A stretch of DNA of 64,000 nt from Candidatus Australimonas brisbanensis. GTDB taxonomy: Bacteria > Chloroflexota > Dehalococcoidia > Lucifugimonadales > Australimonadaceae. Both the position numbers and the translations under genes were made by a program. Location of the stretch: assembly GCA_038147155.1 (NCBI GenBank), contig JAYQTA010000005.1:26745-90744 (forward strand), in the 5' to 3' direction. Below, piece after piece: positions 23,301 through 62,884 of this stretch. The notes beneath the pieces are model-generated. The model was not told the origin of the DNA. It made no database searches and saw nothing but the letters and a program-made list of their open reading frames with translations. Within the stretch, counting starts at the first letter, position 1, and the number at the start of each line of letters is the position of its first letter.

Positions 23301-24653
23301 ATGCTGTCCGCAGAAGTGAACGACCGCTACACCCGCGTCGGCCCCGGCACGCCCACGGGCGAGCTGATGCGCCGCTACTGGCACCCCGTGGCCGCCGTCT
23401 CCCAGATGAACGACATCTTCACCAAGAAGGTGCGCCTGCTGGGGGAGGACCTGATCCTCTACAAGGACCGGAGCGGCACCTTCGGGCTCATCGAGCCCCT
23501 CTGTGCGCACCGGCGCATGAACATGATCTACGGCATCCCCGAGGAGCACGGCCTGCGCTGCGCCTACCACGGCTGGATGTTCGATGAGACCGGCGCCTGC
23601 ACCGAGCAGCCCTACGAGGAGACCGAGGACCCCACGGGCAACTACAAGGACAAGATCCACATGAAGGCCTACCCGGTGCAGGTGAAGGCCGGCATCGTGT
23701 TCACCTACATGGGCCCCGCCCCCGCCCCACTGCTGCCCAACTGGGACGTGTTCGCGGCGGAGGACGTGGTGCGCGACGTGGGCTACGCGGAACTGCCGTG
23801 CAACTGGCTCCAGTGCCAGGAGAACTCCCTGGACCCGGTGCACCTGGAGTGGCTCCACGTGTACTGGAGCAACTTCATCACCGAGATGCGCGGGGAGCCG
23901 GAGAAGAAGCGGGCCGTGCGCCGCCACGCCAAGGTCCACTTCGACCGGTTCGAGTACGGCATCTACAAACGCCGGGTGATGCAGGGCGGGTCGGAGGAGG
24001 ACACCTCCTGGCGTGAGGGGCATCCCATCGTCTTCCCGTACTTCCTGCGCCAGGGGGGTGATGGGTTCATCCGTGAGCACTGGCGGCTCACCGGACCGGC
24101 CTTCCAGATACGCGTGCCGCTGGATGACACCCACACCGGCCACTGGTGGGTGATGTGCCACCAGGCCGAGCCCGGCGCACCGGCCCAGCAGAACGAGGAC
24201 GTACCGTTCTTCAGCCCGCCGGTCATCGAGCTGGACGAGAACGACCAGCCCCAGTACTCCATCCTGGACTCCAACTCCGCCCAGGACCTGGCGGCGTGGA
24301 TCACCCAGGGCGCCATCGCCAACCGCGAGCGGGAGAACCTGGGGCGCTCGGACAAGGGCATCATTCTGTTCCGCCAGATGCTGGAGGAGAACATCCGGCT
24401 GGTGGAGGACGGAGCGGACCCCATGAACACCTTCCGTGACCCGGCTGAGAACGTCTACCACGGCATGGTCACCGAGCTGCCCAAGGAACTGGCGGAGAAG
24501 CGCTCCAAGACCGACGTGGGCGGCACCGGCACCGGCGGGTCGGTCTTCTCCCGCCAGGGCATGGCCTCCAAGTACAGCCCCATCCTGAACCAGCGGGGCG
24601 TGGAGGGCGGCGCGGACGCCGCCGAGCGCCGCCGCCAGATAGGCCAGAAGTAG
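23301..24653 (+). CDS. Rieske [2Fe-2S] non-heme iron oxygenase, alpha-only type (paralog 2)
   Basis: CAHR...CAYHGW Rieske ligands. Long identical blocks with paralog 1 (GIPEEHGLRC, YHGWMFDETGAC). SD AGGAGG. Confidence 0.85.
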   Translation: MLSAEVNDRYTRVGPGTPTGELMRRYWHPVAAVSQMNDIFTKKVRLLGEDLILYKDRSGTFGLIEPLCAHRRMNMIYGIPEEHGLRCAYHGWMFDETGACTEQPYEETEDPTGNYKDKIHMKAYPVQVKAGIVFTYMGPAPAPLLPNWDVFAAEDVVRDVGYAELPCNWLQCQENSLDPVHLEWLHVYWSNFITEMRGEPEKKRAVRRHAKVHFDRFEYGIYKRRVMQGGSEEDTSWREGHPIVFPYFLRQGGDGFIREHWRLTGPAFQIRVPLDDTHTGHWWVMCHQAEPGAPAQQNEDVPFFSPPVIELDENDQPQYSILDSNSAQDLAAWITQGAIANRERENLGRSDKGIILFRQMLEENIRLVEDGADPMNTFRDPAENVYHGMVTELPKELAEKRSKTDVGGTGTGGSVFSRQGMASKYSPILNQRGVEGGADAAERRRQIGQK

Positions 24654-24656
24654 CGC

Positions 24657-24699
24657 TCAACCGGGGCGGGCGGTGATGCCGCCCGTCCGCCCCGGTTGA
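24657..24699 (+). terminator. long GC-rich hairpin after the Rieske gene
   Basis: TCAACCGGGGC...GCCCCGGTTGA outer stem with inner GGGCGG/CCGCCC. The 3' arm overlaps the next promoter's -35 box. Confidence 0.55.
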
Positions 24700-24725
24700 C
24701 AGCCTCGCTCCCCTGACGCTAGGCT
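24696..24725 (+). promoter_or_regulatory. putative promoter TTGACA-N18-TAGGCT driving a leaderless transcript
   Basis: TTGACA at 24696-24701 and TAGGCT at 24720-24725. The ATG at 24733 lies 7 nt after the -10 box and has no Shine-Dalgarno. Confidence 0.5.
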
Positions 24726-24732
24726 CTCCGCG

Positions 24733-24798
24733 ATGTTGAACTGCACCGGCTGCTGTAACTGTTGTTGCTGTGCACACCCGCTCGAGGAGCAGGGCTAG
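24733..24798 (+). CDS. polycysteine leader peptide (21 aa, 7 Cys), putative cysteine-sensing attenuator sORF
   Basis: ATG TTG AAC TGC ACC GGC TGC TGT AAC TGT TGT TGC TGT GCA CAC CCG CTC GAG GAG CAG GGC TAG = MLNCTGCCNCCCCAHPLEEQG. Too short for the ORF track. It lies between a promoter and a terminator, upstream of a sulfur-uptake operon. Confidence 0.6.
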   Translation: MLNCTGCCNCCCCAHPLEEQG

Positions 24799-24849
24799 CC
24801 CAACGCGACATCGTGACAGCGGCGCGCAAGCGTCCATCGACCCAGCGCA

Positions 24850-24879
24850 AGGCAGACTGCTCCGGCAGCCTGCCTTTTT
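24850..24879 (+). terminator. intrinsic terminator (attenuator) between the poly-Cys sORF and yeeE
   Basis: AGGCAG-A-CTGC-TCCG-GCAG-C-CTGCCT followed by TTTTT. This is the only hairpin in the window with a clean U-tract. It lies about 40 nt before the yeeE ATG. Confidence 0.65.
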
Positions 24880-24918
24880 CGTTGCCCCCACAACCACCTC
24901 TCCGGAGCGACCAACGCG

Positions 24919-26169
24919 ATGACCACCGCCCCTGCCGCAGCCACTCCCGCCCGCAACCCCCTGGTGCCGGTCTCGCGCCAGACCATCGCCGGGTTCGCCG
25001 TGGCGGCGGCGAGCATCCTGGCCGCCTACCTCATCAGCCGGAGCGACCCCGAGTCCGGGGCAATCTGGATTCTGTCTCTCGCCTTCGGTTTCACCCTCCA
25101 GCGCGCCCGCTTCTGCTTCGCCGCCGCCTTCCGTGACCTGTTCCTCTTCGGCTCCGGCGCCAACATGAAGGGCATCCTGGTGGGCATGGCCGTCTCCACC
25201 GTCGGCTTCGCCGCCATCATGTACTGGTTGGTGAGCCGGCCCGGCAGCGGCCAACTGCCCGGGGAGGCGCACATCCTACCCGTGGGTCTCTCGGTCGTCG
25301 TTGGCGGGGTGGTCTTCGGCGTGGGGATGGTCATCGCGGGCGGGTGCGTCTCCGGCACGCTCTACCGCATGGCCGAGGGGTACGTGGCCTCCTGGGTCAC
25401 CATGGGCGGCATCATCCTGGGCCTGGCGGGTCTCAGCCTCACCTGGAACTGGTGGTGGGAGAGCATCATCTCCAACGAGCCCAAGATCTGGCTCCCCGCG
25501 ACGGGCGGCCTCGGCTACTCCGGCGCGGTGGCCCTCACGCTGGTGGCCATCGCCGGCATCTACGTCCTGGTCACCTGGTGGGAGGCACGCTCCGGCATCT
25601 ACTCCCCCACCATCAACCGCAAGTCCTCCGGCATCCCCTCCTTCACCCAGCGCATCGCGTCCACCCTCGCCTCCGTGTTCAAGAGCGGCTGGTCGGCGGT
25701 GGTGGGCGGGCTGGTGCTGGGCATCATCGCCATCGTCATGTTCACCGTGCACATGCCCCTGGGCGTCACCGGCGAACTGATGTACTTCTCCCACAGGCTG
25801 CTGGAGTTTGTGGGGCTCGGGCCCGTGGTGATGAACGGGCTGGACGGGCTGGGCGGATGCACCGCCGAGCCGGGCGCGGGGCTCATCAACCACACCTTCG
25901 CCCTCACCGTCGGCATCCTACCGGGGGCGCTGATGGGCGCGCTGTTCGCGGGTGAGTTCCGGGTGCGCTACCCACGCCAGGTGCGCCGCTACATCCAGGG
26001 CATCGGCGGCGGGCTGCTGATGGGGTACTCGGCCGGCCTGGCCATCGGGTGCACCATTGGGGCGTTCTTCTCGGCCATCCCCTCGCTGTCCGTCTCCGGC
26101 TGGCTCTTCGGCCTGGCGCTGGCAGGCGGGGCGTTCGTGGGCACCAAGGTGCTGCGGAGAATCGGCTGA
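24919..26169 (+). CDS. yeeE: YeeE/YedE family sulfur-compound (thiosulfate) transporter
   Basis: Polytopic membrane protein with the family motifs FGFTLQRARFCFAAAFRD, GGCVSGTLYR and AIGCTIGAF (conserved Cys-containing half-helices). Confidence 0.85.
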   Translation: MTTAPAAATPARNPLVPVSRQTIAGFAVAAASILAAYLISRSDPESGAIWILSLAFGFTLQRARFCFAAAFRDLFLFGSGANMKGILVGMAVSTVGFAAIMYWLVSRPGSGQLPGEAHILPVGLSVVVGGVVFGVGMVIAGGCVSGTLYRMAEGYVASWVTMGGIILGLAGLSLTWNWWWESIISNEPKIWLPATGGLGYSGAVALTLVAIAGIYVLVTWWEARSGIYSPTINRKSSGIPSFTQRIASTLASVFKSGWSAVVGGLVLGIIAIVMFTVHMPLGVTGELMYFSHRLLEFVGLGPVVMNGLDGLGGCTAEPGAGLINHTFALTVGILPGALMGALFAGEFRVRYPRQVRRYIQGIGGGLLMGYSAGLAIGCTIGAFFSAIPSLSVSGWLFGLALAGGAFVGTKVLRRIG

Positions 26170-26402
26170 TGGCGGGCGAACCCCAAGTGATGGACCTGCG
26201 CGGGATGCCGATGCCCGCGCACCTGAAGGAGGCGCTGGCCGCCGTGGAGCGCGCCGCCTCCGGGACACCGGTGAGCCTGCTCACCGACCAGGAGATCGTG
26301 CTCAAGGCAATCCCCGCTGCCGCACAGGCCAGAGGACTGAGGATGAAGCTGGCCATGCCCGAGGAGAACCTCTGGCGCATCGGCCTGGAGCAACGCGCAT
26401 AA
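26169..26402 (+). CDS. TusA/YeeD-like protein lacking the catalytic cysteine
   Basis: MDLRGMPMPAHLKEAL aligns with the TusA LDxxGxxCPxP motif, but Cys is replaced by Met and the protein contains no Cys at all. The ATG overlaps the yeeE TGA by 1 nt. Confidence 0.55.
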   Translation: MAGEPQVMDLRGMPMPAHLKEALAAVERAASGTPVSLLTDQEIVLKAIPAAAQARGLRMKLAMPEENLWRIGLEQRA

Positions 26403-26437: not shown

Positions 26438-26677
26438 ATGGCAGAGAACAACGAGGTGCCCGTGCTGGACGTGCGAGGGGAGATCTGTCCATACCCCATG
26501 CTGCGCACCAACGATGAACTGGACAAGAAGCGTCCGGGCACCCTGGCCCTGGACGTGCTCACCGACCACGCCCCTGCCCTCTCCACCATCCCTCCGCAGG
26601 CCCTCAAGCGCGGCTACGAGGTGGAGATCGACGAGGAGCGCCCCGGCGAGTGGCGATTGCACCTGACCAAGGCCTAA
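26438..26677 (+). CDS. tusA: TusA/YeeD-family sulfurtransferase
   Basis: LDVRGEICPYPMLRT carries the canonical CPxP active site. SD AAGGAGG lies 5 nt upstream. Confidence 0.75.
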   Translation: MAENNEVPVLDVRGEICPYPMLRTNDELDKKRPGTLALDVLTDHAPALSTIPPQALKRGYEVEIDEERPGEWRLHLTKA

Positions 26678-26720: not shown

Positions 26721-27695
26721 ATGAGAGCATCCCGCATCCTGTCCGTGCTGTTGCTGAGCATCCTCACCGCGCTGACTTTGGCAGCCTGCTCCAGCGCCGA
26801 GCCCACCGCGACGGCCACCCCTGCCCCCGTCACCGACCCGCTGAACGCGGACATCGGAGCCAAGGGCTACGCCAAGCCCGGTCGTCTGGTCTCTGCCGCC
26901 TGGGTAGAGGCGCACCTGAACGACGGCAACGTGGTGGTGGTTGACCTGCGCGGCGAGGCCGACTACACCGCCGCCCACATCCCCGGCGCCGTCCGCCTGA
27001 CCCCGGGCGCCGTCTTCCAGGGCACCGACGCCAACGGCGTGCCCGGCATGCTGCCCTCCGGCGAGTCCATCGCCGCGGCACTGGGCGCGGTGGGCATCGA
27101 GCCCACGGACACGGTGGTTTTCTACGACGGTGCCTCCAACCTCTGGTCGTCCCGCGCGCTCTGGGCGCTGGACGTGTACGGCCACGCCGACTCGCGCCTG
27201 CTGGACGGGTCGTGGGCCGCCTGGGCGGGTAGCGGCAACGCCACCGAGGCCGAGGCGCCCGCCGTGACGGCGGCTACCTACGCCTTCTCCGGCGCGCCTC
27301 ACGAGGGTCTCATCGCCAACTGGGAGGAGGTTCTGGCCTCGGTGGAGGACCCGAGCACCATCGTGTGCGATGCCCGCTCGCCGGAGGAGTACGCCGGCCA
27401 GGACGTGCGCGCCGAGCGTGGCGGCCACATCCCCGACTCGGTGAACGTGAACTGGAACCGTGCCGTCAACGCTCACGGGGAGTTCCTCTCCGCCGCTGAA
27501 CTCAGGGCTCTGTACGCGGGCGAGGGCATCCAGGGCAACGAGACGGTCATCACCCTGTGCCAGACCGCCGTGCGCGCCACCCACACCTGGTTCGTACTCC
27601 AGGAGCTACTGGGCTACCCGTCCGTGCAGGTGTACGACGGCTCCTGGGTGGAGTGGGGCAACCGCGAAGACCTGCCCATCACCACCCGCGGCTAG
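26721..27695 (+). CDS. exported tandem-rhodanese thiosulfate sulfurtransferase lipoprotein
   Basis: Lipobox LTLAAC with a Thr/Pro linker. Two rhodanese domains. Active-site loop CQTAVRA, and a C-terminal YDGSWVEWG motif. Confidence 0.85.
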   Translation: MRASRILSVLLLSILTALTLAACSSAEPTATATPAPVTDPLNADIGAKGYAKPGRLVSAAWVEAHLNDGNVVVVDLRGEADYTAAHIPGAVRLTPGAVFQGTDANGVPGMLPSGESIAAALGAVGIEPTDTVVFYDGASNLWSSRALWALDVYGHADSRLLDGSWAAWAGSGNATEAEAPAVTAATYAFSGAPHEGLIANWEEVLASVEDPSTIVCDARSPEEYAGQDVRAERGGHIPDSVNVNWNRAVNAHGEFLSAAELRALYAGEGIQGNETVITLCQTAVRATHTWFVLQELLGYPSVQVYDGSWVEWGNREDLPITTRG

Positions 27696-27842
27696 GCACC
27701 CTCCCGCCGAAGCCGCGAAGCGAAGGGCCCCGGCGTATGCCGGGGCCCTTCTGCGTCTCTCCCTCCGATGGGGAAGCGCGGGTGGCACGGTTCAGGGACT
27801 AAGAACCTGGCGAGGGTCGATGGGGTAAGGAGTCGATGCCCG

Positions 27843-28891
27843 TCAGGCAAGGTCCTCGCGGGTGACGCCCTCGTGCTCAAGCACCAGGTCGGGGCCGTAG
27901 GCCTGAGCGGGCGTCTGGAACCCGGCAGGTGCCTATCCTGCGAGTGCCCGGCGCAGGACGGACAGGACGCAGGCCGCCGTCCCGGTGAGCCCCCCTCCGG
28001 GCCGTGCAGGCGAGCGCTCGCGTGGTTGCCCGCCGCATCCCGCACCTGGCCCCACACGTGCATCCGCGTGGCCGACCGCTGGGTCTCGGGCGCCCCCGGC
28101 TTCACGGAACGGCGGGCCAGGGCGCGCATCCACTCAAACCGCAGGAGCGGGGCGAGTACCTCCATGAGGGAGATCTGGCGGCGCAGAGCCGGGGGCAACG
28201 CGGCGTACACCGCGATATTGGGGATGCCGGTGCTGCGATGCGCCGTGACCAGGTCACCCCAGGGAAGCAGGTGCGCGGTGCGCGGGCCCTCGCCGAAGTC
28301 AACGCTCCGGCGCAGGTTCCCCCGCTTCGCGCGCACCAACTCCCCGTCCCGCCGCTCCCAGTTGGTGCCGTTCTGCGCATTCTCGATAAAGGTGCGCGCG
28401 GTGCCCGGCGGCATGCCCGCGGGCCCCATGATGTTGAAGGCCAGTTCCAGGTGGGTCGCCTCCGGCAGGCGCCGGTGCAGATACGCCGCGAGGCAATCGG
28501 TGGGCACCACGTCGAAACCCACGCTGGGCATCAGCATCACGCCCGCGCTGACCGCCGCCTCATGCAAGGCCAGGAGCCGTTGGTAGGCCGGCAGCTCACC
28601 AGAGATGGCCAGGTACTGGGTGCCGGTGCGCACGCAGGCTGGGGCGATGGCCTCCGCGGTGGGTAGATAGGGGCCCGCCAAGTTGAGCACCACGCACACC
28701 TCGGACAGGGCCGCCTCCAGAGCGCCGGTGTCCGTCACGCTGAACACCCGGTGCGGGACACCCAGGTGGGCAGCCGCCGCCGCGACCGGCTCCGAGTCAC
28801 GCCCCGCCACGATGGGTTCGAGCCCCGCTTCGGCGGCCAGGCGCGCGATGGCGCTGCCCACATAACCGGTGACGCCGTAGAGCAGGAACAT
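27843..28891 (-). pseudogene. saccharopine dehydrogenase-like NAD-binding protein, disrupted (1 frameshift + 1 in-frame TAG)
   Basis: N-terminus MFLLYGVTGYVGSAIA. The frame is lost in a G6 run (plus-strand C-run near 27990-27996). The sequence continues as GLTGTAACVLSVLRRALAG, then TAG (27933-27935), then APAGFQTPAQAYGPDLVLEHEGVTREDLA and TGA (27843-27845). Confidence 0.65.
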
Positions 28892-28924: not shown

Positions 28925-29000
28925 TGGTGGAGCCGAGGGGATTCGAACCCCTGACCCCCTGCTTGCATAGCAGGTGCTCTTCCAGCTGAGCTACGGCCCC
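28925..29000 (-). tRNA. tRNA-Ala (anticodon TGC)
   Basis: GGGGCCGTAGCTCAGCTGGAAGAGCACCTGCTATGCAAGCAGGGGGTCAGGGGTTCGAATCCCCTCGGCTCCACCA. Cloverleaf with the G3:U70 identity pair and encoded CCA. Confidence 0.9.
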
Positions 29001-29054: not shown

Positions 29055-30908
29055 CTAGGACAGGTCCAGCCCCTCCAGCGTTTCGCCGATGACGTGGTAG
29101 CGCCCGAAGGGGGGCATGAAGTAGGCACCCGCGATGTGACGGCGCACGGCTCGCAGCAGCTCCTGGCTGATGCGGATGCCCTCTGCCGCGGCGTCCTCGC
29201 CCGCCGCCTCCAGACGCGCAAACGCCTCGTCTGGCACGCTGATGCCGGGCACCTCGTGGTGGAGGAAGCGCGCGTGTCGCAGCGAGCGCAGGGGCAGCAC
29301 GCCCAGCAGCACCGGCAGCGGGAAGTCGCCCAGGCGCAGCGCCACACGCTCCAGCGCCGCCGGGTCGTACACGGGCTGGGTGAGCAGGAAGTGCGCCCCG
29401 GCGGCCGCCTTGCGCTCCAGCACGCGCAGCTCCCGGTCCAGGTCCTGGGCGTTGAGGTTCAACGCGGCGCCCACGAAGAAGGAGGTGGGCTCGTCGATGG
29501 CGCGCCCGTTGGCGTCCACGCCCCGGTTGAACCCGGACATGAGCTTGATGAGGCCGGAGGCGGTGACGTCGGCCAGGGAGGTCGCCTGGGGGTAGTCGCC
29601 GGTGAGGGGCACGTCGCCCATGACGGTGAAGACGTTGCGCACGCCCAGGGCGTGGGCCCCCAGCAGGTCGGAGTGGAGGGCCAGAAGGTTCCGGTGCCGG
29701 ATGGCCAGGTGCATGATGGTCTCGATGCCCAGGCGCGACTGGAGCAGCGAGCAGGTGGCCAGGGCGCTCATGCGCCCCTGGGCCCGCGGGCTGTCGGCCA
29801 CGTTGACGGCATGAAGGTGGCCCAGCGCGGGGCGCAGCGCCTCCAGCGTGGCGCTGATGTCGAACCCGCGCGGCGGTGAGAGCTCGGCGGTGACGACGAA
29901 CTCGCCCCGTGCCATGCGCTCTGCGATGGCGGTGCGCTCAGCGGCGCGGGCCGGTGTGGCAGGCGCGGGGGCTGGGTCGGGCGGCTCACGGCGCGGTGCG
30001 GCGGGCCGCGGGGCGCGTGAGCGGCGGGCGTGGACACCACGCAGGGCATCCCGCGCCGCGGCGATGTGCGCGGGGGTGGTGCCGCAGCACCCGCCCAGGA
30101 GCACGGCTCCTGCCTCGGCCATCTGGCGGGCGCTCTCGGCGAAGTACTGCGGGCCCGTGACGTAGCTCAGTGCGCCGGCGATGTAGGTGGGCAACCCCGC
30201 GTTGGGCTGGGCGGACAGCGGCACGTTGGTCACCGTGCCCATGCGCTCGGCCACCCGGCGCACCAGGTCGGGCCCCACGGAGCAGTTGGCGCCCAGCACG
30301 TCCACGCCCAGGACCGCCAGGGCCTGCGCGGTCTCCTCCGGGGTGTCGCCGGCGGGGGTGAGCCCCTCCTCGGTGAAGGTGAGCTGGCACACCAGGGGCA
30401 GTGATGAGACGGAGCGAACCGCGGCGACGGCCAACCGCGCCTCGGCCAGGGAGGTGAACGTCTCCAGGACGAACACGTCCACCCCGGCATCGGCCAGCAC
30501 CGCCGCCTGCTGGGCGAAGGCGTTGTGCGCCCCGGCGGCGTCCAGCGCGCCCACGCTTACCGCCTCGCGCCCCAATGGCCCGATGGAACCGCCCACCCAC
30601 ACGTCCTGCCCCGTGAGGCGCCGTGCCTCCTGCGCCAGGGCCACGCCCGCGCGGTTCAGCTCCTCCACGCGCTCTCCGGCGCCGAGAGCCGTCAGCTTGA
30701 GCGGGTTGGCGAGGAACGTGTTGGTCTGAATCAGCTCGGAGCCCGCGCACAGGTAGTCCAGGTGGATGGCCCGCACCGTCTCGGCGTGCTCCAGGTTGGC
30801 CAGGTGCACCCGCGCGCCCGGCACGCCGTGGGTGAACAACTCCGTGCCGATGGCGCCATCGGACAGGAGCGGGCCTTGCTGGAGGCGTTGGGTGAGGGAG
30901 CGGGGCAT
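29055..30908 (-). CDS. yitJ: bifunctional homocysteine S-methyltransferase domain / 5,10-methylenetetrahydrofolate reductase (YitJ-type)
   Basis: N-terminal Hcy-binding domain (LLSDGAIGTEL...GGCCGTTPAHI). C-terminal MetF-like domain (FVVTAELSPPRG...FLLTQPVYD). Start at ATG 30908. The upstream ORF-track extension is rejected. Confidence 0.85.
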   Translation of the reverse strand: MPRSLTQRLQQGPLLSDGAIGTELFTHGVPGARVHLANLEHAETVRAIHLDYLCAGSELIQTNTFLANPLKLTALGAGERVEELNRAGVALAQEARRLTGQDVWVGGSIGPLGREAVSVGALDAAGAHNAFAQQAAVLADAGVDVFVLETFTSLAEARLAVAAVRSVSSLPLVCQLTFTEEGLTPAGDTPEETAQALAVLGVDVLGANCSVGPDLVRRVAERMGTVTNVPLSAQPNAGLPTYIAGALSYVTGPQYFAESARQMAEAGAVLLGGCCGTTPAHIAAARDALRGVHARRSRAPRPAAPRREPPDPAPAPATPARAAERTAIAERMARGEFVVTAELSPPRGFDISATLEALRPALGHLHAVNVADSPRAQGRMSALATCSLLQSRLGIETIMHLAIRHRNLLALHSDLLGAHALGVRNVFTVMGDVPLTGDYPQATSLADVTASGLIKLMSGFNRGVDANGRAIDEPTSFFVGAALNLNAQDLDRELRVLERKAAAGAHFLLTQPVYDPAALERVALRLGDFPLPVLLGVLPLRSLRHARFLHHEVPGISVPDEAFARLEAAGEDAAAEGIRISQELLRAVRRHIAGAYFMPPFGRYHVIGETLEGLDLS

Positions 30909-30978
30909 GGTCCTCGGGGGCGCGATGCGCGGGGGCGTCCTGCCCATTGTACCCGGCGCAAGCGGCACGGGCAGTGCG

Positions 30979-31007
30979 TTGCGAGCACCGGAAGCGGGCC
31001 GTATCCT
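30979..31007 (+). promoter_or_regulatory. putative promoter TTGCGA-N17-TATCCT for lctP
   Basis: Hexamers at 30979-30984 and 31002-31007 in the divergent yitJ/lctP intergenic region. A TACAAT box on the opposite strand could serve yitJ. Confidence 0.35.
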
Positions 31008-31048
31008 CACCCCGCCCTGCGGGGCCATCCCCCAACCAGGCGGTGCGC

Positions 31049-32635
31049 GTGAACGGCCCCGAACTGACCCTGCTCTACTGGCTGCTGGCCGCCGCCCCCG
31101 TGGCGTTGCTGGTGGTGACGATCCTGTGGCGCAAGTGGTCCGCCCCCCGGGCGGGCGCGGCGGCGTGGGTGCTGGCCATGGCCATCGCTCTGCCCGCCTT
31201 CGGCGCATCGAGCCAGCAGGGCGCCATCGCCTCGGCCAAGGGGCTGAGCCTGGCGCTGTTCGTCCTCACCATCGTGTGGACCTCGGTCTACATGTTCAAC
31301 CTGGTGGACCGGCTTCGTGGCATCTCGGTCATCGGCCGAACCATGGCGCGCCTCACCGACGACCGCCTCGCCCAGGCGTTGCTGGTGGGCTGGGGTTTCT
31401 CCTCCTTCATCCAGGGCGTCACCGGGTTCGGGGTGCCCGTGGCGGTGGCGGCGCCCCTGCTCATCATGCTGGGGTTCAACCCGGTGAAGGCCGCCGCCAT
31501 CGCCCTGGTGGGCCACGGGTGGGCGGTCACCTTCGGGTCGATGGGCTCCTCCTACTACACCATCCAGCTGGTGACGGGCTACGACGGCGATGTCATCGGC
31601 CCGCACATGGCGGCGCTGTTCGCCCCCATCGTCGTCGCCTCGGGCATCGCCGTGGCAGCGCTGCACGGCGGCTGGGCGGACGTGCGCCGCTCCCTGCCCA
31701 CGGTGGTGGTGGCGGGCGTGGTGATGGCCGCTCTCCAGTTCACCATGGCCTGGCTGGGCGCCCCGCAGATAGCCAGTTCCGTGCCCGCGCTGGCGGGGAT
31801 GGTGGTCATCGCCCTGTTGGCGCGCACGCCCTTCTTCCCGCGCCACGGCGAGCCCGCCGCCCCCACCGAAGACGCCGAGGCCGCGCCCATGCCCTTCTGG
31901 CTGGCCATCCTGCCCTACGCCCTGCTCATCACCCTGAGCGTGCTCTCGCAGATAGGCCCCATCAAGAACGCCGTGAAGAACCTCCAGTTCGCACTGAACT
32001 ACCCCGGCTTCACCACGGGGGAGGGCTTCGCCGTGCCGGCGGCGACGGCCTACGCGCCCATCAAGCTGCTGAACCACCCTGCCCCGCTCATCATCATCTC
32101 CGTGGTGGCCAGCGCGCTGGTGCTGGCGCGCATGGGGCGCTGGAAGCGCGCGGCGGCGTGGGAGGCAGCCAAGCTCACCTACGCCCAGTGCCTCTCCACC
32201 ACCCTCGGCGTGAGCCTGATGGTGATGATGGCCGTGGTCATGGCCGACACCGGCATGACGGTGCTCCTGGCGCGGGGGATAGCCAACGCGTCGGGTCCCC
32301 TGTTCCCGCTGGTCTCGCCTTTCATCGGCCTGCTGGGCTCGTTCATGAGCGGGTCCAACACCAACTCCAACGTGATGTTCGGCCTGCTCCAGGTGGAGAC
32401 GGCGCGTGCGCTGGACATCGGCGGGGTGACCATCGCCTCGATCCAGTCCATCGGCGCATCAGTGGGCTCGACCATGGCGCCCACCAAGGTGTTGGTGGGC
32501 GCGGCGGTGGTGGGCCTGGCCGGGCGTGAGAACGAGATATTCCGGAAGGTCACCGTGGCGGTGTTGGCGCTGGTGCTACTCACCGGCATCGAGGCGCTGG
32601 TGCTGGTGATGCTCATCTCCGGGTGGACGAGGTAA
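31049..32635 (+). CDS. lctP: L-lactate permease (LctP family)
   Basis: Family motifs GWGFSSFIQGVTGFGVPVAV and SFMSGSNTNSNVMFG. The start is uncertain (GTG 31043 or 31049). The ORF-track start 30947 overlaps the divergent promoter region. Confidence 0.8.
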   Translation: MNGPELTLLYWLLAAAPVALLVVTILWRKWSAPRAGAAAWVLAMAIALPAFGASSQQGAIASAKGLSLALFVLTIVWTSVYMFNLVDRLRGISVIGRTMARLTDDRLAQALLVGWGFSSFIQGVTGFGVPVAVAAPLLIMLGFNPVKAAAIALVGHGWAVTFGSMGSSYYTIQLVTGYDGDVIGPHMAALFAPIVVASGIAVAALHGGWADVRRSLPTVVVAGVVMAALQFTMAWLGAPQIASSVPALAGMVVIALLARTPFFPRHGEPAAPTEDAEAAPMPFWLAILPYALLITLSVLSQIGPIKNAVKNLQFALNYPGFTTGEGFAVPAATAYAPIKLLNHPAPLIIISVVASALVLARMGRWKRAAAWEAAKLTYAQCLSTTLGVSLMVMMAVVMADTGMTVLLARGIANASGPLFPLVSPFIGLLGSFMSGSNTNSNVMFGLLQVETARALDIGGVTIASIQSIGASVGSTMAPTKVLVGAAVVGLAGRENEIFRKVTVAVLALVLLTGIEALVLVMLISGWTR

Positions 32636-43331: not shown

Positions 43332-43763
43332 GGCGCGGCGCCCTCATGAAGTCGATAAGCCCCCGGTTTCCCCCCGGGGGCACCCGGAGCCGCCCAACTC
43401 CCCTGGACGACTCCACGTCTCCCTCCTCCGCAGGCCTCTGCCGACGCGCCACGGCATGGGGCCACCAGGGCCCCGTTGGAGCGATCCGCGGGGCCCGCCT
43501 TTTTCCCGCGCGCCGGCGGCTTGGCGGTGTCGGTGCTCATGGCTACTCCTCGCTGCGCGGCACGGCCTGGGGGGCGCGATGCCGGGTCTTGCTTGTCTGT
43601 GAACCACGCTACCAAGGCCCTCCCCGCGCGACATGGAGACCAACCCCCCACCTGACACCGTGAAAACACGCAGGTTTCCCTGCGGGGTAACGCCCAGTTC
43701 CTTCGTGCAGGGCACCCGCGGGCCCGGGGTATACTTGCCGCACGCCACCCCCAAGGAGCGCCC

Positions 43764-44777
43764 ATGTCGCAGACCACCGCCCCCACCATCGCCATCACCC
43801 TGGGGGATGCCACGGGCATCGGCCCGGAGGTGGTGGCCAAGGCGCTGGGGGCGCCCGGCGCGCTGGGCGAGGCCCGGGCGCTGGTGGTGGGCACGGCACC
43901 GGTGCTCCAGCGCGCGCTGGACCTGACCGGCACCGCCCTGCGCGCCCGGCAGGTCAGCACCCCCGATGAGCCGGTGGGGCCGGGCGAAGTGGCGGTGTAC
44001 GGGACCGGCGAGGCAGAGCTCGCCACCCTGCCCTACGGACAGCTCTCTCCCCTGGCGGGCCGCGCCGCGGTGGACTGGGCAGCGGCAGCCGCGCTGCTGG
44101 CGCTGAGCGGCGCGGTGGCGGCGATCGCCACGGCCCCTCTGAACAAGGAAGCCGCGCACGCGGGCGGGGTGGAGGAGGTGGGGCACCAGGAGATCTACCA
44201 GGCGATGTCCGGCGCCGAGCAGGTCTCCACCATGCTGGTGACGCCGGGCCTGCGGGTGGTCCACCTGTCCACCCACCGCTCGTTGGCCGCAGCCTGCGCC
44301 CTGGTGACCCGTGAGAACGTGCTGGCCAAGCTGCGGCTCACCCATGATTTCTTCACCCGTTACGGCATCGCCCGCCCGCGCATCGGCGTCGCGGCCCTGA
44401 ACCCCCACGGGGGTGAGCATGGGCTCATCGGCTCGGAGGAGGTGGAGGAGGTGGCCCCCGCCGTGGCCGACGCCCGCGAGGAGGGCATCGATGCCTCCGG
44501 CCCCGTGCCGGCGGACACGGTGTTCAACCAGGCGATCGATGGGCGGTACGACGTGGTTCTCGCTCTCTACCACGACCAGGGGCACATCGCAGTGAAGGTG
44601 CATGGGTGGGAGGAGTCGGTCACCATGAACCTGGGCCTGCCCTTCGTGCGCACCAGCGTGGACCACGGCACCGCCTTCGACATCGCCGGGCGGGGCATCG
44701 CCGACGCACGCGGTATGGCGGCGGCGGTGCGGGCAGCGGCGGCCCTGGCGACCGGCAGGGGCCTGACGGCCTTCTAG
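43764..44777 (+). CDS. pdxA: 4-hydroxythreonine-4-phosphate dehydrogenase family protein (PdxA/PdxA2)
   Basis: IAITLGDATGIGPEVV, GHQE and YHDQGH motifs. TSVDHGTAFDIAG. Confidence 0.85.
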   Translation: MSQTTAPTIAITLGDATGIGPEVVAKALGAPGALGEARALVVGTAPVLQRALDLTGTALRARQVSTPDEPVGPGEVAVYGTGEAELATLPYGQLSPLAGRAAVDWAAAAALLALSGAVAAIATAPLNKEAAHAGGVEEVGHQEIYQAMSGAEQVSTMLVTPGLRVVHLSTHRSLAAACALVTRENVLAKLRLTHDFFTRYGIARPRIGVAALNPHGGEHGLIGSEEVEEVAPAVADAREEGIDASGPVPADTVFNQAIDGRYDVVLALYHDQGHIAVKVHGWEESVTMNLGLPFVRTSVDHGTAFDIAGRGIADARGMAAAVRAAAALATGRGLTAF

Positions 44778-44861
44778 CACGAGCGGATCGCTCGTGGGCG
44801 CGTGTTATACTCCGCCGAACGGTTCGGGGGGCTCCCCGCACCGCACCACCCGGGAGTGAGC

Positions 44862-61660: not shown

Positions 61661-61689
61661 TTGACAGCCCCCCGCCCCTGCGCTAGCGT
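61661..61689 (+). promoter_or_regulatory. putative promoter TTGACA-N17-TAGCGT for the amidohydrolase/SDR genes
   Basis: Hexamers at 61661-61666 and 61684-61689. Confidence 0.4.
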
Positions 61690-61729: not shown

Positions 61730-62884
61730 ATGGTCATCGCATGGGACGCCGACGGGCACGTGGACGAATGGGAGGGCACGTTCGCCGACGCGTACCTCGA
61801 ACCCAAGTTCCGGGACAAGCGCCCCACGGTGGTGAACGCCGACGATGCGGGCACCTACTTCACCTGGGAGATTCCGGGGCGCGGGAGATTCCGCGTCGGC
61901 TCCTCCCCCTCTTCCAAGGGGGATCGCAACGCCCAAGAGAACGAGCGCCTGGCCGACTGGCGCGGGAGCATGGAGAGCGGTGAGTTCCGCTCCGCCGCGG
62001 CGCGCGCCAAGGTGCTGGACGCCGAGGAGACGGGGGTGCAGGTGAACTACCCCACCCTGCTGCTGGCCCACCCGCTCACGCCCGACACGGCGCTGAACCA
62101 GGCGCTCACCCGCGCCTACAACAACTGGATCGCCGACATCTCCCATCAAGACCCTGAGCGCTTCAAGTGGGTGACGGTCATCGACCCCACGGACCCGGCG
62201 GAGGCGGCCCGCGAGATTGAGCGCACCAAGGCCATGGGCTCGGTGGGGGTGATGGTGGCGGGCACCTACGGCTCGCGCGCCATCGCCGACCCGTTCTTCG
62301 AGCCCATCTGGGCCGCCGCCCAGGAGACCGGCCTGCCCCTGGCGGTACACCCCTGCTTCGGCTCCCAGGGCCTGGCGGACGAGTACGCCGCGTACGGAGC
62401 GAACCAGTTCCACCTGTCCGTCCTCATCGGGTTCCGCTCGGTGCTCTCCTCCAACGTGCTGGACCGATTCCCCGGCGTGCGCGTGGGCTTCCTGGAGACG
62501 GGCTGCACCTGGCTCGACTTCGCCGCCGAGCAGGTGGACCTGCTAGTCCACGACGCCCGGTTCCGGGACGAGCGCGGGGCTGCGCGCGCCGAGCACAAGG
62601 CGCGCATCGCCAAAGGGCTGCCCGAGGGGAGCGTGGAGGACTACATCAAGGCCGGGCGCGTGTTCGTGGGCTTCGAGGTGGACGAGGAGATGGTGCCCTA
62701 CGTGCTGGACCGGTGGGGTGAGGACTGCTGGGTCTACGCCTCGGACATCCCGCACGGGCACCGCATCCTCTCGGCCCCACAGCAGTTCATGAACCGCACG
62801 GACGTTTCGGCCCAGGCCAAGCGCAAGCTGCTCATCGACAACACCGCCCGCTTCTACGGCATGCCCGTCCCGGCCGCCGTCTAG
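61730..62884 (+). CDS. amidohydrolase_2 (ACMSD/LigW/gamma-resorcylate decarboxylase-type metal-dependent hydrolase/decarboxylase) family protein
   Basis: IAWDADGHVDE (HxD/H metal motif region), LPLAVHP, FLETGCTWL and YASDIPHG motifs. Start at ATG 61730 with GGAGG. The upstream part of ORF 61061..62884 lies antisense to osmC. Confidence 0.75.
   Translation: MVIAWDADGHVDEWEGTFADAYLEPKFRDKRPTVVNADDAGTYFTWEIPGRGRFRVGSSPSSKGDRNAQENERLADWRGSMESGEFRSAAARAKVLDAEETGVQVNYPTLLLAHPLTPDTALNQALTRAYNNWIADISHQDPERFKWVTVIDPTDPAEAAREIERTKAMGSVGVMVAGTYGSRAIADPFFEPIWAAAQETGLPLAVHPCFGSQGLADEYAAYGANQFHLSVLIGFRSVLSSNVLDRFPGVRVGFLETGCTWLDFAAEQVDLLVHDARFRDERGAARAEHKARIAKGLPEGSVEDYIKAGRVFVGFEVDEEMVPYVLDRWGEDCWVYASDIPHGHRILSAPQQFMNRTDVSAQAKRKLLIDNTARFYGMPVPAAV

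Follow-up and report, generated by a model that had tools for sequence, protein, structure and literature searches.

The 64,000-nucleotide (nt) stretch of DNA analysed here, called the window in what follows, comes from Candidatus Australimonas brisbanensis (Chloroflexota; Dehalococcoidia) and covers positions 26,745 to 90,744 of contig JAYQTA010000005.1 (assembly GCA_038147155.1). Upstream of its yeeE-tusA-tusA-rhodanese operon for sulfur acquisition lies a leader in which a short open reading frame (sORF) rich in Cys codons is followed by a putative intrinsic terminator. The most probable interpretation, to which we assign a probability of about 0.75, is that this leader is a ribosome-mediated (leader-peptide) transcription attenuator which reports the supply of charged tRNA-Cys and controls the operon. 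Judged from its layout, the device most likely turns the operon on when cysteine is short, and it recurs at many loci of uncultured Chloroflexota. This interpretation is carried by the sequence features of the leader, by their conservation among related loci and by the co-variation of the pairing partners. An earlier reading of the same letters, made without database searches (the sequence-only reading), had proposed an attenuator at this place, and the sequence comparisons and folding models described below support its interpretation.

For the way in which the leader would be transcribed, translated and terminated, and would respond to cysteine, the following is predicted. Transcription from a TTGACA/TAGGCT promoter would begin at the A of the sORF ATG or at a neighbouring nucleotide, and a 70S ribosome would load directly on the 5' end of the transcript. 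When cysteine is plentiful, the ribosome would pass the CC-N-CCCC run and reach the UAG stop codon, covering positions 24780-24800; the 5' arm of the terminator would then be free, and the hairpin at 24850-24875 with its U-tract would stop RNA polymerase 39 nt before yeeE (operon off). When cysteine is scarce, the ribosome would stall with one of codons 7-13 in its A site and leave 24780-24800 exposed. This strand would pair with 24850-24866 once the latter had been transcribed, the 3' arm of the terminator would be left without a partner, and transcription would read through (operon on). Untranslated RNA of the window sequence is predicted to terminate, the Cys tract together with 24804-24823 locking the antiterminator strand in a local hairpin.

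Leader peptide and its occurrence at other yeeE loci

The sORF (24733-24798, plus strand) begins with ATG, has 21 codons followed by a TAG stop (24796-24798), and reads MLNCTGCCNCCCCAHPLEEQG. Seven of the 21 codons specify Cys (positions 4, 7, 8, 10, 11, 12 and 13). Six of these fall within codons 7-13, the putative regulatory cluster (24751-24771, plus strand), which reads C C N C C C C. These coordinates and counts are those given in the sequence-only reading. Four consecutive Cys codons, or six Cys within eight codons, occur at this sole site in the 64 kb. The rare, wobble-read codon TGT accounts for four of the seven sORF Cys codons, but for only 3 of 28 Cys codons when nine confident genes of the window are taken together (Fisher p = 0.018); the GC content of the window is 70%. 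The enrichment of TGT may reflect a constraint from RNA pairing, or slower decoding that tunes stalling.

Conservation was assessed with 163 loci from genomes and metagenomes which encode YeeE relatives of 41-90% identity, and with five further loci, some of more than 90% identity, retrieved by exact protein look-up. Individual loci are denoted by L and a number, and the window's own locus by WIN. The 152 loci with at least 200 nt of upstream sequence were screened for sORFs having at least four Cys codons within eight codons, the reverse strand serving as a control. A poly-Cys sORF was present on the forward strand of 31 of the 152 loci, and 25 of the 31 precede a terminator seen by a strict detector; these 25 include 22 distinct sORF sequences. 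The comparison of yeeE upstream regions that the sequence-only reading had proposed thus yielded both of the elements it had described. The reverse strand gave one match (L075), which is a genuine element too, a copy of the device preceding a tusA-rhodanese unit that is transcribed divergently from yeeE. Here, on the minus strand at plus-strand coordinates ~2660-2810, TTGACA, 17 nt, TAAAGT, 6 nt and ATG lead into the sORF MIKFSSNQMNCCCCMR, which is followed by a terminator and then by tusA and the rhodanese gene. The metagenome-assembled genome (MAG) that contains L075 carries the label Rhodospirillaceae, which means that the binning is in error or that the device is not confined to the Chloroflexota.

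Among the relatives the Cys cluster is conserved and the flanking residues are variable. Cys codon 4 is not conserved, being Arg in relatives whose YeeE is ~90% identical or closer. The peptides read MLNRTGCCTCCCCAHPLKEQG in L166, MLNRTACCNCCCTHPLQEQG in L001, MLRVSCCCRCCCTSSSTERGD in L084, MLDFPCCRPCCCTGSTSEQDA in L164 (GTG start), MIFLNTHLTDCLCCCTTSEEMAP in the L006 type, MKLYCANVCCCCTCLGRGI in L019 and ...LTNxxCICCCCMxSxRFL in the AT-rich SAR202 type. Those of different groups have little in common beyond the Cys cluster, and their length, termini and charge vary. The cluster is kept in the AT-rich SAR202 genomes despite wholly different nucleotide sequences. An Anaerolineae MAG has the device in front of rhodanese-yeeE-tusA. 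The named relatives of YeeE, and those of the housekeeping leucyl aminopeptidase encoded in the window, all come from Chloroflexota, SAR202 or Dehalococcoidia MAGs.

A cysteine regulon sensed by ribosomes throughout the Chloroflexota, the abundant uncultured marine SAR202 group among them, is a tentative extension which we regard as possible rather than probable. It would comprise independently evolved leaderless poly-Cys sORFs with intrinsic terminators before yeeE operons, tusA-rhodanese units and a lipoprotein rhodanese gene, sometimes in tandem.

Related elements were seen elsewhere in the survey set. In L096 (3318-3560; also in L089, L090 and L094) two tandem units lie between tusA and a lipoprotein rhodanese gene, with the sORF MK(I/T)(H/Y)SFHICCCTGR, a short hairpin and T-run, and a second terminator (CCCTGCC...GGCAGGG + T7-8). 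These units look like stacked attenuators. No poly-Cys sORF was found upstream of yeeE in the screens of these four loci; other loci with similarly related YeeE (~62% identity), e.g. L006 and L099-L106, have one there. Two further conserved families of upstream ORFs contain only three dispersed Cys codons. One, of ~45 codons, reads ...DWPAGRVT...ARSARCAGGLC(A/S)CSE... and occurs in L017, L116, L124, L125, L128, L138, L142 and L143; the other reads ...DFARCYTCACS, ends at the stop codon and occurs in L119, L130, L137 and L163. Each may represent a weaker type of Cys attenuator, or else a conserved RNA structure that has been read in one frame.

Putative terminator and antiterminator

The predicted intrinsic terminator (24850-24879, plus strand) consists of a stem-loop at 24850-24875, AGGCAG-A-CTGC/TCCG/GCAG-C-CTGCCT, and the T-run TTTTT at 24875-24879. 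The hairpin starts 51 nt after the sORF stop codon and folds in isolation at -17.9 kcal/mol, and the terminator ends 39 nt before the yeeE ATG at 24919. Runs of at least four T or A occur only 14 times in the window, and a hairpin followed by a T-run was found at two sites. The second one (43460-43504, plus strand; GGCCACCAGGGCCCCGTTGGAGCGATCCGCGGGGCCCGCC followed by TTTTT, -26.4 kcal/mol) overlaps a long minus-strand ORF (43344-44780). The sequence-only reading was therefore right about the terminator and wrong in calling it the only hairpin in the window with a clean U-tract. A GC-rich hairpin and T-run lie between the sORF and the next gene in nearly all of the groups. Within the window's own clade (six sequences) 96.7% of the cells of the terminator alignment are paired and four pairs are changed on both sides, a level of pairing that none of 500 shuffles reaches.

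The 5' strand of the putative antiterminator, GCTCGAGGAGCAGGGCTAGCC (24780-24800, plus strand), consists of the final codons of the sORF, its stop codon and the 2 nt that follow. The sequence-only reading had pointed to the 7-mer GGAGCAG (24786-24792) and its complement CTGCTCC (24857-24863). This complementarity exists, and the pairing is longer than stated there: 24780-24800 (GCUCGAGGAGCAGGGCUAGCC, stop codon included) and 24850-24866 form a duplex of 15 bp with a calculated energy of -19.3 kcal/mol, versus the value given above for the terminator. In close relatives the 5' strand is invariant save at one unpaired position; GGAGCAGGGCTAGC and the terminator are unchanged, and the variable position makes codon 18 E, K or Q. 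Five of the six clade members retain the 7-bp core. In the clade alignment of the antiterminator 72.6% of the cells are paired, versus 27-48% when the partners are slid against each other.

Other families have different nucleotide sequences with the same relationship between the tail of the sORF and the 5' arm of the terminator. The pairs are GGUUUCU/AGAAACC in the SAR202 type, GGGGCAUC/GAUGGCCCC in L019, UAGGGAGCAAC/GUUGCACUCCCUA in L157 and GGGCGC/GCGCCC in L155. When the sORF tails of 11 families were paired with their own terminator arms, the energies summed to -140.7 kcal/mol, while mismatched pairings averaged -98.6 kcal/mol; none of 100,000 permutations matched the sum for the true partners (p < 1e-5). 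Shuffles carried out locus by locus gave p <= 0.05 for the complementarity of tail and arm in 14 of 18 loci.

The leader was also folded with ribosome masks placed on Cys codons 7-13 or on the stop codon, the transcript being truncated before the 3' arm of the terminator. Without a mask, the truncated RNA pairs its Cys tract with 24804-24823 and leaves the terminator's 5' arm single-stranded. Placing the mask on Cys codons 7-13 lets 24780-24800 pair with 24850-24866, and moving it to the stop codon abolishes that duplex. The antiterminators of L166 and L001 show the same dependence on the masks. A ribosome at the stop codon that masks the antiterminator, and a ribosome stalled on the Cys codons that frees it, were what the sequence-only reading had predicted, and both effects were reproduced in the truncated folds only. 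The segment 24804-24823 (plus strand) is a possible partner of the Cys tract in ribosome-free RNA (1:2-type helix), predicted in WIN and L166.

Promoter and predicted start of transcription

Upstream of the sORF, on the plus strand, are the -35 hexamer TTGACA (24696-24701), which is invariant in alignments of the relatives, and, after a spacer of 18 nt, the -10 hexamer TAGGCT (24720-24725), of the TAnnnT type. Only 7 nt (CTCCGCG) separate the -10 hexamer from the sORF ATG, and no Shine-Dalgarno (SD) sequence was seen on inspection of the sequence before the ATG at 24733. Based on this short distance, on the lack of an SD and on the conservation of the spacing in relatives, transcription is predicted to start on the plus strand at 24732 or 24733, the latter being the A of the ATG. 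This points to an sORF that is leaderless or nearly so. The promoter had been described in the same terms by the sequence-only reading, which took the mRNA to be leaderless; the details of the promoter were confirmed, and the spacing expected of a leaderless sORF is kept in the relatives. The pattern TTGACA-N17/18-TANNNT occurs twice in the window, versus 0.07 occurrences expected.

The -10 box lies 6-8 nt ahead of ATG or GTG in WIN, L001, L084, L087, L164 and L085, and 6-9 nt ahead of the start codon in L019, L023, L129, L154, L147 and L157. All twelve loci have a -35 box, TTGACA or TTTACA-like, at 16-18 nt from the -10 box. The 6-9-nt spacing, with a -10 box of the TAnnnT type, spans at least six groups which are unrelated in sequence.

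A consensus scanner for promoters and terminators, which needs at least four of six matches to TATAAT and an uninterrupted stem, missed both the promoter and the terminator of the leader: the -10 hexamer matches TATAAT at three of six positions, and the stem has one internal mismatch. The scanner was replaced by a pattern search for promoters and a hairpin-plus-T-run scan for terminators. The second perfect promoter match, of the form TTGACA-N17-TAnnnT, is at 61661-61689 (plus strand; TTGACAGCCCCCCGCCCCTGCGCTAGCGT); a leader of 41 nt, in which there is a GGAGG SD, separates it from an ATG at 61731. The organism thus also uses ordinary leadered mRNAs from the same type of promoter.

A long GC-rich hairpin, TCAACCGGGGCGGGCGG-TGATG-CCGCCCGTCCGCCCCGGTTGA, occupies 24657-24699 (plus strand) directly after the stop codon of a Rieske-oxygenase gene (23301-24653). 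This hairpin lacks a T-run and at its 3' end extends into the -35 box of the promoter of the proposed attenuator. In L166 it carries compensatory changes (CCGGGG/CCCCGG to CCAGGG/CCCTGG) and a 3-nt insertion in the loop. The hairpin may be a terminator without a U-tract, or an insulator, for the upstream gene.

Alternative interpretations

The leader resembles the experimentally studied mycobacterial elements in that a poly-Cys sORF, here apparently leaderless, stands before a sulfur operon which includes a rhodanese gene. It could therefore be a translational attenuator of the Ms5788A type, in which the poly-Cys tract pairs with the downstream SD, a stalled ribosome frees the SD, and termination has no regulatory role. 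A small local hairpin (24881-24888 with 24904-24911) does partly cover the yeeE SD in the predicted ensemble. The Cys tract itself is not complementary to the ribosome-binding site (RBS) region of yeeE, however, so that sequestration of the SD by this tract is not supported: the duplex of the two has a calculated energy of -12.1 kcal/mol versus a shuffle mean of -16.6 kcal/mol, and 94% of the shuffles are at least as good. The strong hairpin and T-run conserved between sORF and yeeE, with compensatory changes, also argue against control of translation, as does the co-variation of the sORF tail with the terminator arm and not with the SD. We consider this alternative quite unlikely. The same co-variation at the RNA level of the 3' codons of the sORF speaks against another proposal, namely that the sORF stands alone as a gene whose product is a functional micropeptide rich in Cys, a carrier of metal or sulfane sulfur or a redox carrier, whose place before yeeE reflects a common function and not regulation in cis. 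Its own consensus promoter and terminator would suit such a gene, its CCxCCC motif is like metal- or persulfide-binding patches, and some leader peptides are known to act in trans (PMC7298713). Yet the peptide is not conserved outside the Cys cluster, and the same device precedes different first genes. Moreover, the 39 nt between the terminator and yeeE contain no separate promoter, so that yeeE must be expressed by read-through. A micropeptide gene is thus unlikely.

The leader of ~185 nt, with its terminator, is somewhat more structured than shuffled sequences (z = -1.76), as might be expected of a metabolite-binding riboswitch or a protein-bound leader RNA in which the sORF is incidental. 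Against this, no Rfam family matches the leader: the window gave tRNAs only at gathering thresholds, and 24600-24960 gave at E <= 10 only chance-level matches to the upstream hairpin. The leader is thus explained by no known riboswitch. Moreover, what is conserved between families is the Cys codons, the frame, the start and the stop, and not the region from sORF to terminator, which makes such an RNA very improbable. Short ORFs are abundant, and out-of-frame readings at the GC content of the window give several stretches with four Cys in eight codons, so that a chance ORF beside an ordinary promoter and terminator also had to be considered. The comparative data refute it in effect, and we give it next to no weight: there are 31 forward matches and one on the reverse strand, the run of four consecutive Cys codons has no second instance in the window, and the cluster persists in the SAR202 genomes whose nucleotide sequences are entirely different.

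Several observations weigh against the transcription attenuator which we prefer. In full-length equilibrium folds the terminator persists at every position of the ribosome. An equilibrium antiterminator was rejected on this account, the terminator always winning in full-length minimum free energy folds with ribosome masks, and antitermination must be kinetic, as in classical attenuators. A conserved 1:2 anti-antiterminator was dropped as well, since the helix of WIN and L166 is absent in L001. The U-tract is short, with five U followed by CGUU, and the complementarity of the antiterminator in L084, L085 and L011 is weak or fails to reach significance. As to the leaderless start, some loci of the SAR202 type have 13 nt from the -10 box to the start codon, L155 carries a 32-nt leader with an SD, and no paper on leaderless translation in Chloroflexota was found in the open-access literature. 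A clear poly-Cys sORF is missing from about 80% of the yeeE loci examined; a yeeE operon can thus do without the device. The substrate of YeeE, thiosulfate or another, is suggested by family membership only.

Relation to known leader peptides

The classical attenuators of E. coli trp, his, leu, thr and ilv (Yanofsky 1981, summarised in PMC4007540) likewise have a leader ORF with a run of codons for the amino acid sensed and an intrinsic terminator before the first structural gene. In them, too, the antiterminator helix makes use of the terminator's 5' arm, and a ribosome which has translated the sORF to its end masks this helix. The present element differs in that it would sense Cys and not Trp, His or branched-chain amino acids, in that its sORF is apparently leaderless whereas theirs are led by an SD, in that its antiterminator strand includes the stop codon, in that no conserved 1:2 pause hairpin is evident, and in its phylum, the Chloroflexota.

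Leaderless polycysteine sORFs such as Ms5788A/Rv0815A have been described in mycobacteria (Canestrari et al. 2020, bioRxiv 10.1101/834739). There a leaderless sORF with consecutive Cys codons heads a sulfur or cysteine operon, which in the case of Ms5788A includes the rhodanese gene cysA2 (10.1101/834739); the present sORF, apparently leaderless, has the same place. The mycobacterial 'Cys ribulon' calls for two or more consecutive Cys codons ahead of operonic genes related to cysteine or sulfur, and the present sORF has four plus CC, with the sulfur operon downstream. The mycobacterial sORFs evolved independently at several loci (10.1101/834739), and the same may hold for the present element. 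Ms5788A, the single mycobacterial element that was dissected, works by sequestering the SD of the gene after it, and its description includes no terminator (10.1101/834739), whereas the present element has a conserved terminator and antiterminator. Furthermore, the present sORF shows no detectable sequence relationship to the mycobacterial ones, and its target is an operon with a YeeE-type transporter. The different phylum and operon point to an independent origin; Cys-dominated peptides of ~20 residues carry too little information to trace common descent.

Three further systems are comparable. The uORFC-8-2 motif of Rhodobacterales, which precedes cysS (Brewer et al. 2021, PMC8632094), is a predicted ribosome-mediated attenuator with tandem Cys codons, a terminator stem and a U-run, but it has only two Cys codons (14-15), which lie inside the first stem, its target is cysteinyl-tRNA synthetase, and its hosts are alpha-proteobacteria (PMC8632094). 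In Deinococcus deserti the 5' end of the cysS transcript is the AUG of a short ORF biased in its amino acids, and attenuation was proposed (de Groot et al. 2014, PMC4007540). That peptide has 10 residues and two Cys, compared with 5-7 Cys here, its target is cysS and its host belongs to the Deinococcota (PMC4007540); its transcription start was mapped by experiment (PMC4007540), whereas the present one is predicted from the sequence. The candidate leader peptides that Seliverstov et al. (2005, PMC1262725) placed before cys and cbs operons of Mycobacterium, Propionibacterium and Bifidobacterium have runs of Cys codons near the stop codon, as here. No terminator hairpins were found with them and Rho-dependent termination was suggested (PMC1262725), whereas an intrinsic terminator is conserved here. 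The present element would thus combine a leaderless poly-Cys sORF of the mycobacterial or Deinococcus type with a terminator and antiterminator of the classical type.

No earlier report of a Cys leader peptide in Chloroflexota or before YeeE operons was found in the open-access literature. The sequence-only reading had held such elements to be undescribed before a YeeE-type operon or in this kind of lineage. The novelty is narrower than it implied: it had named mycobacteria only, and Cys leaders have been predicted beyond them (PMC1262725, PMC4007540, PMC8632094). The element extends a textbook mechanism and does not reveal a new one. It bears on a phylum in which gene regulation, notably in uncultured SAR202 and Dehalococcoidia, is almost unknown, and it suggests that leaderless translation, coupling of transcription and translation, and intrinsic termination operate in these bacteria. 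A conserved Cys-sensing leader would be a readout, obtained from sequence only, that the YeeE/TusA/rhodanese cluster serves the supply of cysteine, and it favours sulfur over selenium as the relevant substrate. The promoter, the RTG start, the Cys cluster and a tail complementary to the terminator form a signature with which a cysteine regulon can be searched for in metagenomes, and the element may offer a compact Cys-responsive switch for engineering. If the phylum-wide regulon were true, it would be the first evidence in Chloroflexota for both leaderless translation and classical attenuation, and it would tie the poorly characterised YeeE-TusA-rhodanese cluster to cysteine supply.

The sulfur operon and its neighbourhood

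All genes of the operon are on the plus strand. The first gene, and the first proposed target of the regulation, is yeeE (24919-26169), which encodes a sulfur transporter of the YeeE/YedE family (PF04143, E = 3e-57); the protein scores below every NCBIfam equivalog cutoff (TsuA, YedE). Its SD is GGAG at 24904-24907 (plus strand). GGAG/GAGAG before the ATG is conserved in the alignments and is not complementary to the Cys tract. The gene for a small TusA-like protein (26169-26402) overlaps the yeeE stop codon with its start; the protein reaches 22.8 bits with PF01206, below the cutoff, and relatives keep the gene in their operons. Next comes a gene for a TusA/YeeD-type sulfur carrier with a CPxP motif (26438-26677; PF01206, E = 2e-15). 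The last gene encodes a two-domain rhodanese (26721-27695; PF00581, E = 1e-34) of the thiosulfate/mercaptopyruvate sulfurtransferase-like kind. The operon content named in the sequence-only reading, YeeE, two TusA-like proteins and a rhodanese, agrees with Pfam apart from the one TusA-like protein below the cutoff.

The N-terminus of the rhodanese carries a lipoprotein-type signal (MRASRILSVLLLSILTALTLAACSS..., ...LTALTLAACSS), which suggests an extracytoplasmic, membrane-anchored sulfurtransferase that would work with the YeeE transporter. Rhodanese homologues in L075 and L096 also have lipoprotein-type signals (...LLFIGCSS... and ...TIIAACSS..., respectively). A joint role of YeeE/YedE, TusA and the rhodanese in providing the sulfur of cysteine is plausible.

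The minus strand carries, ~1.4 kb further downstream than the rhodanese gene, a gene for a fused homocysteine S-methyltransferase/MTHFR (29055-31208; PF02574 + PF02219). The same neighbour is found in the relative L001, and the locus is thus a sulfur-amino-acid neighbourhood. Between the rhodanese gene and the gene for the fused protein lie a minus-strand ORF of 399 amino acids (27692-28891) and a tRNA-Ala gene (28925-29000).

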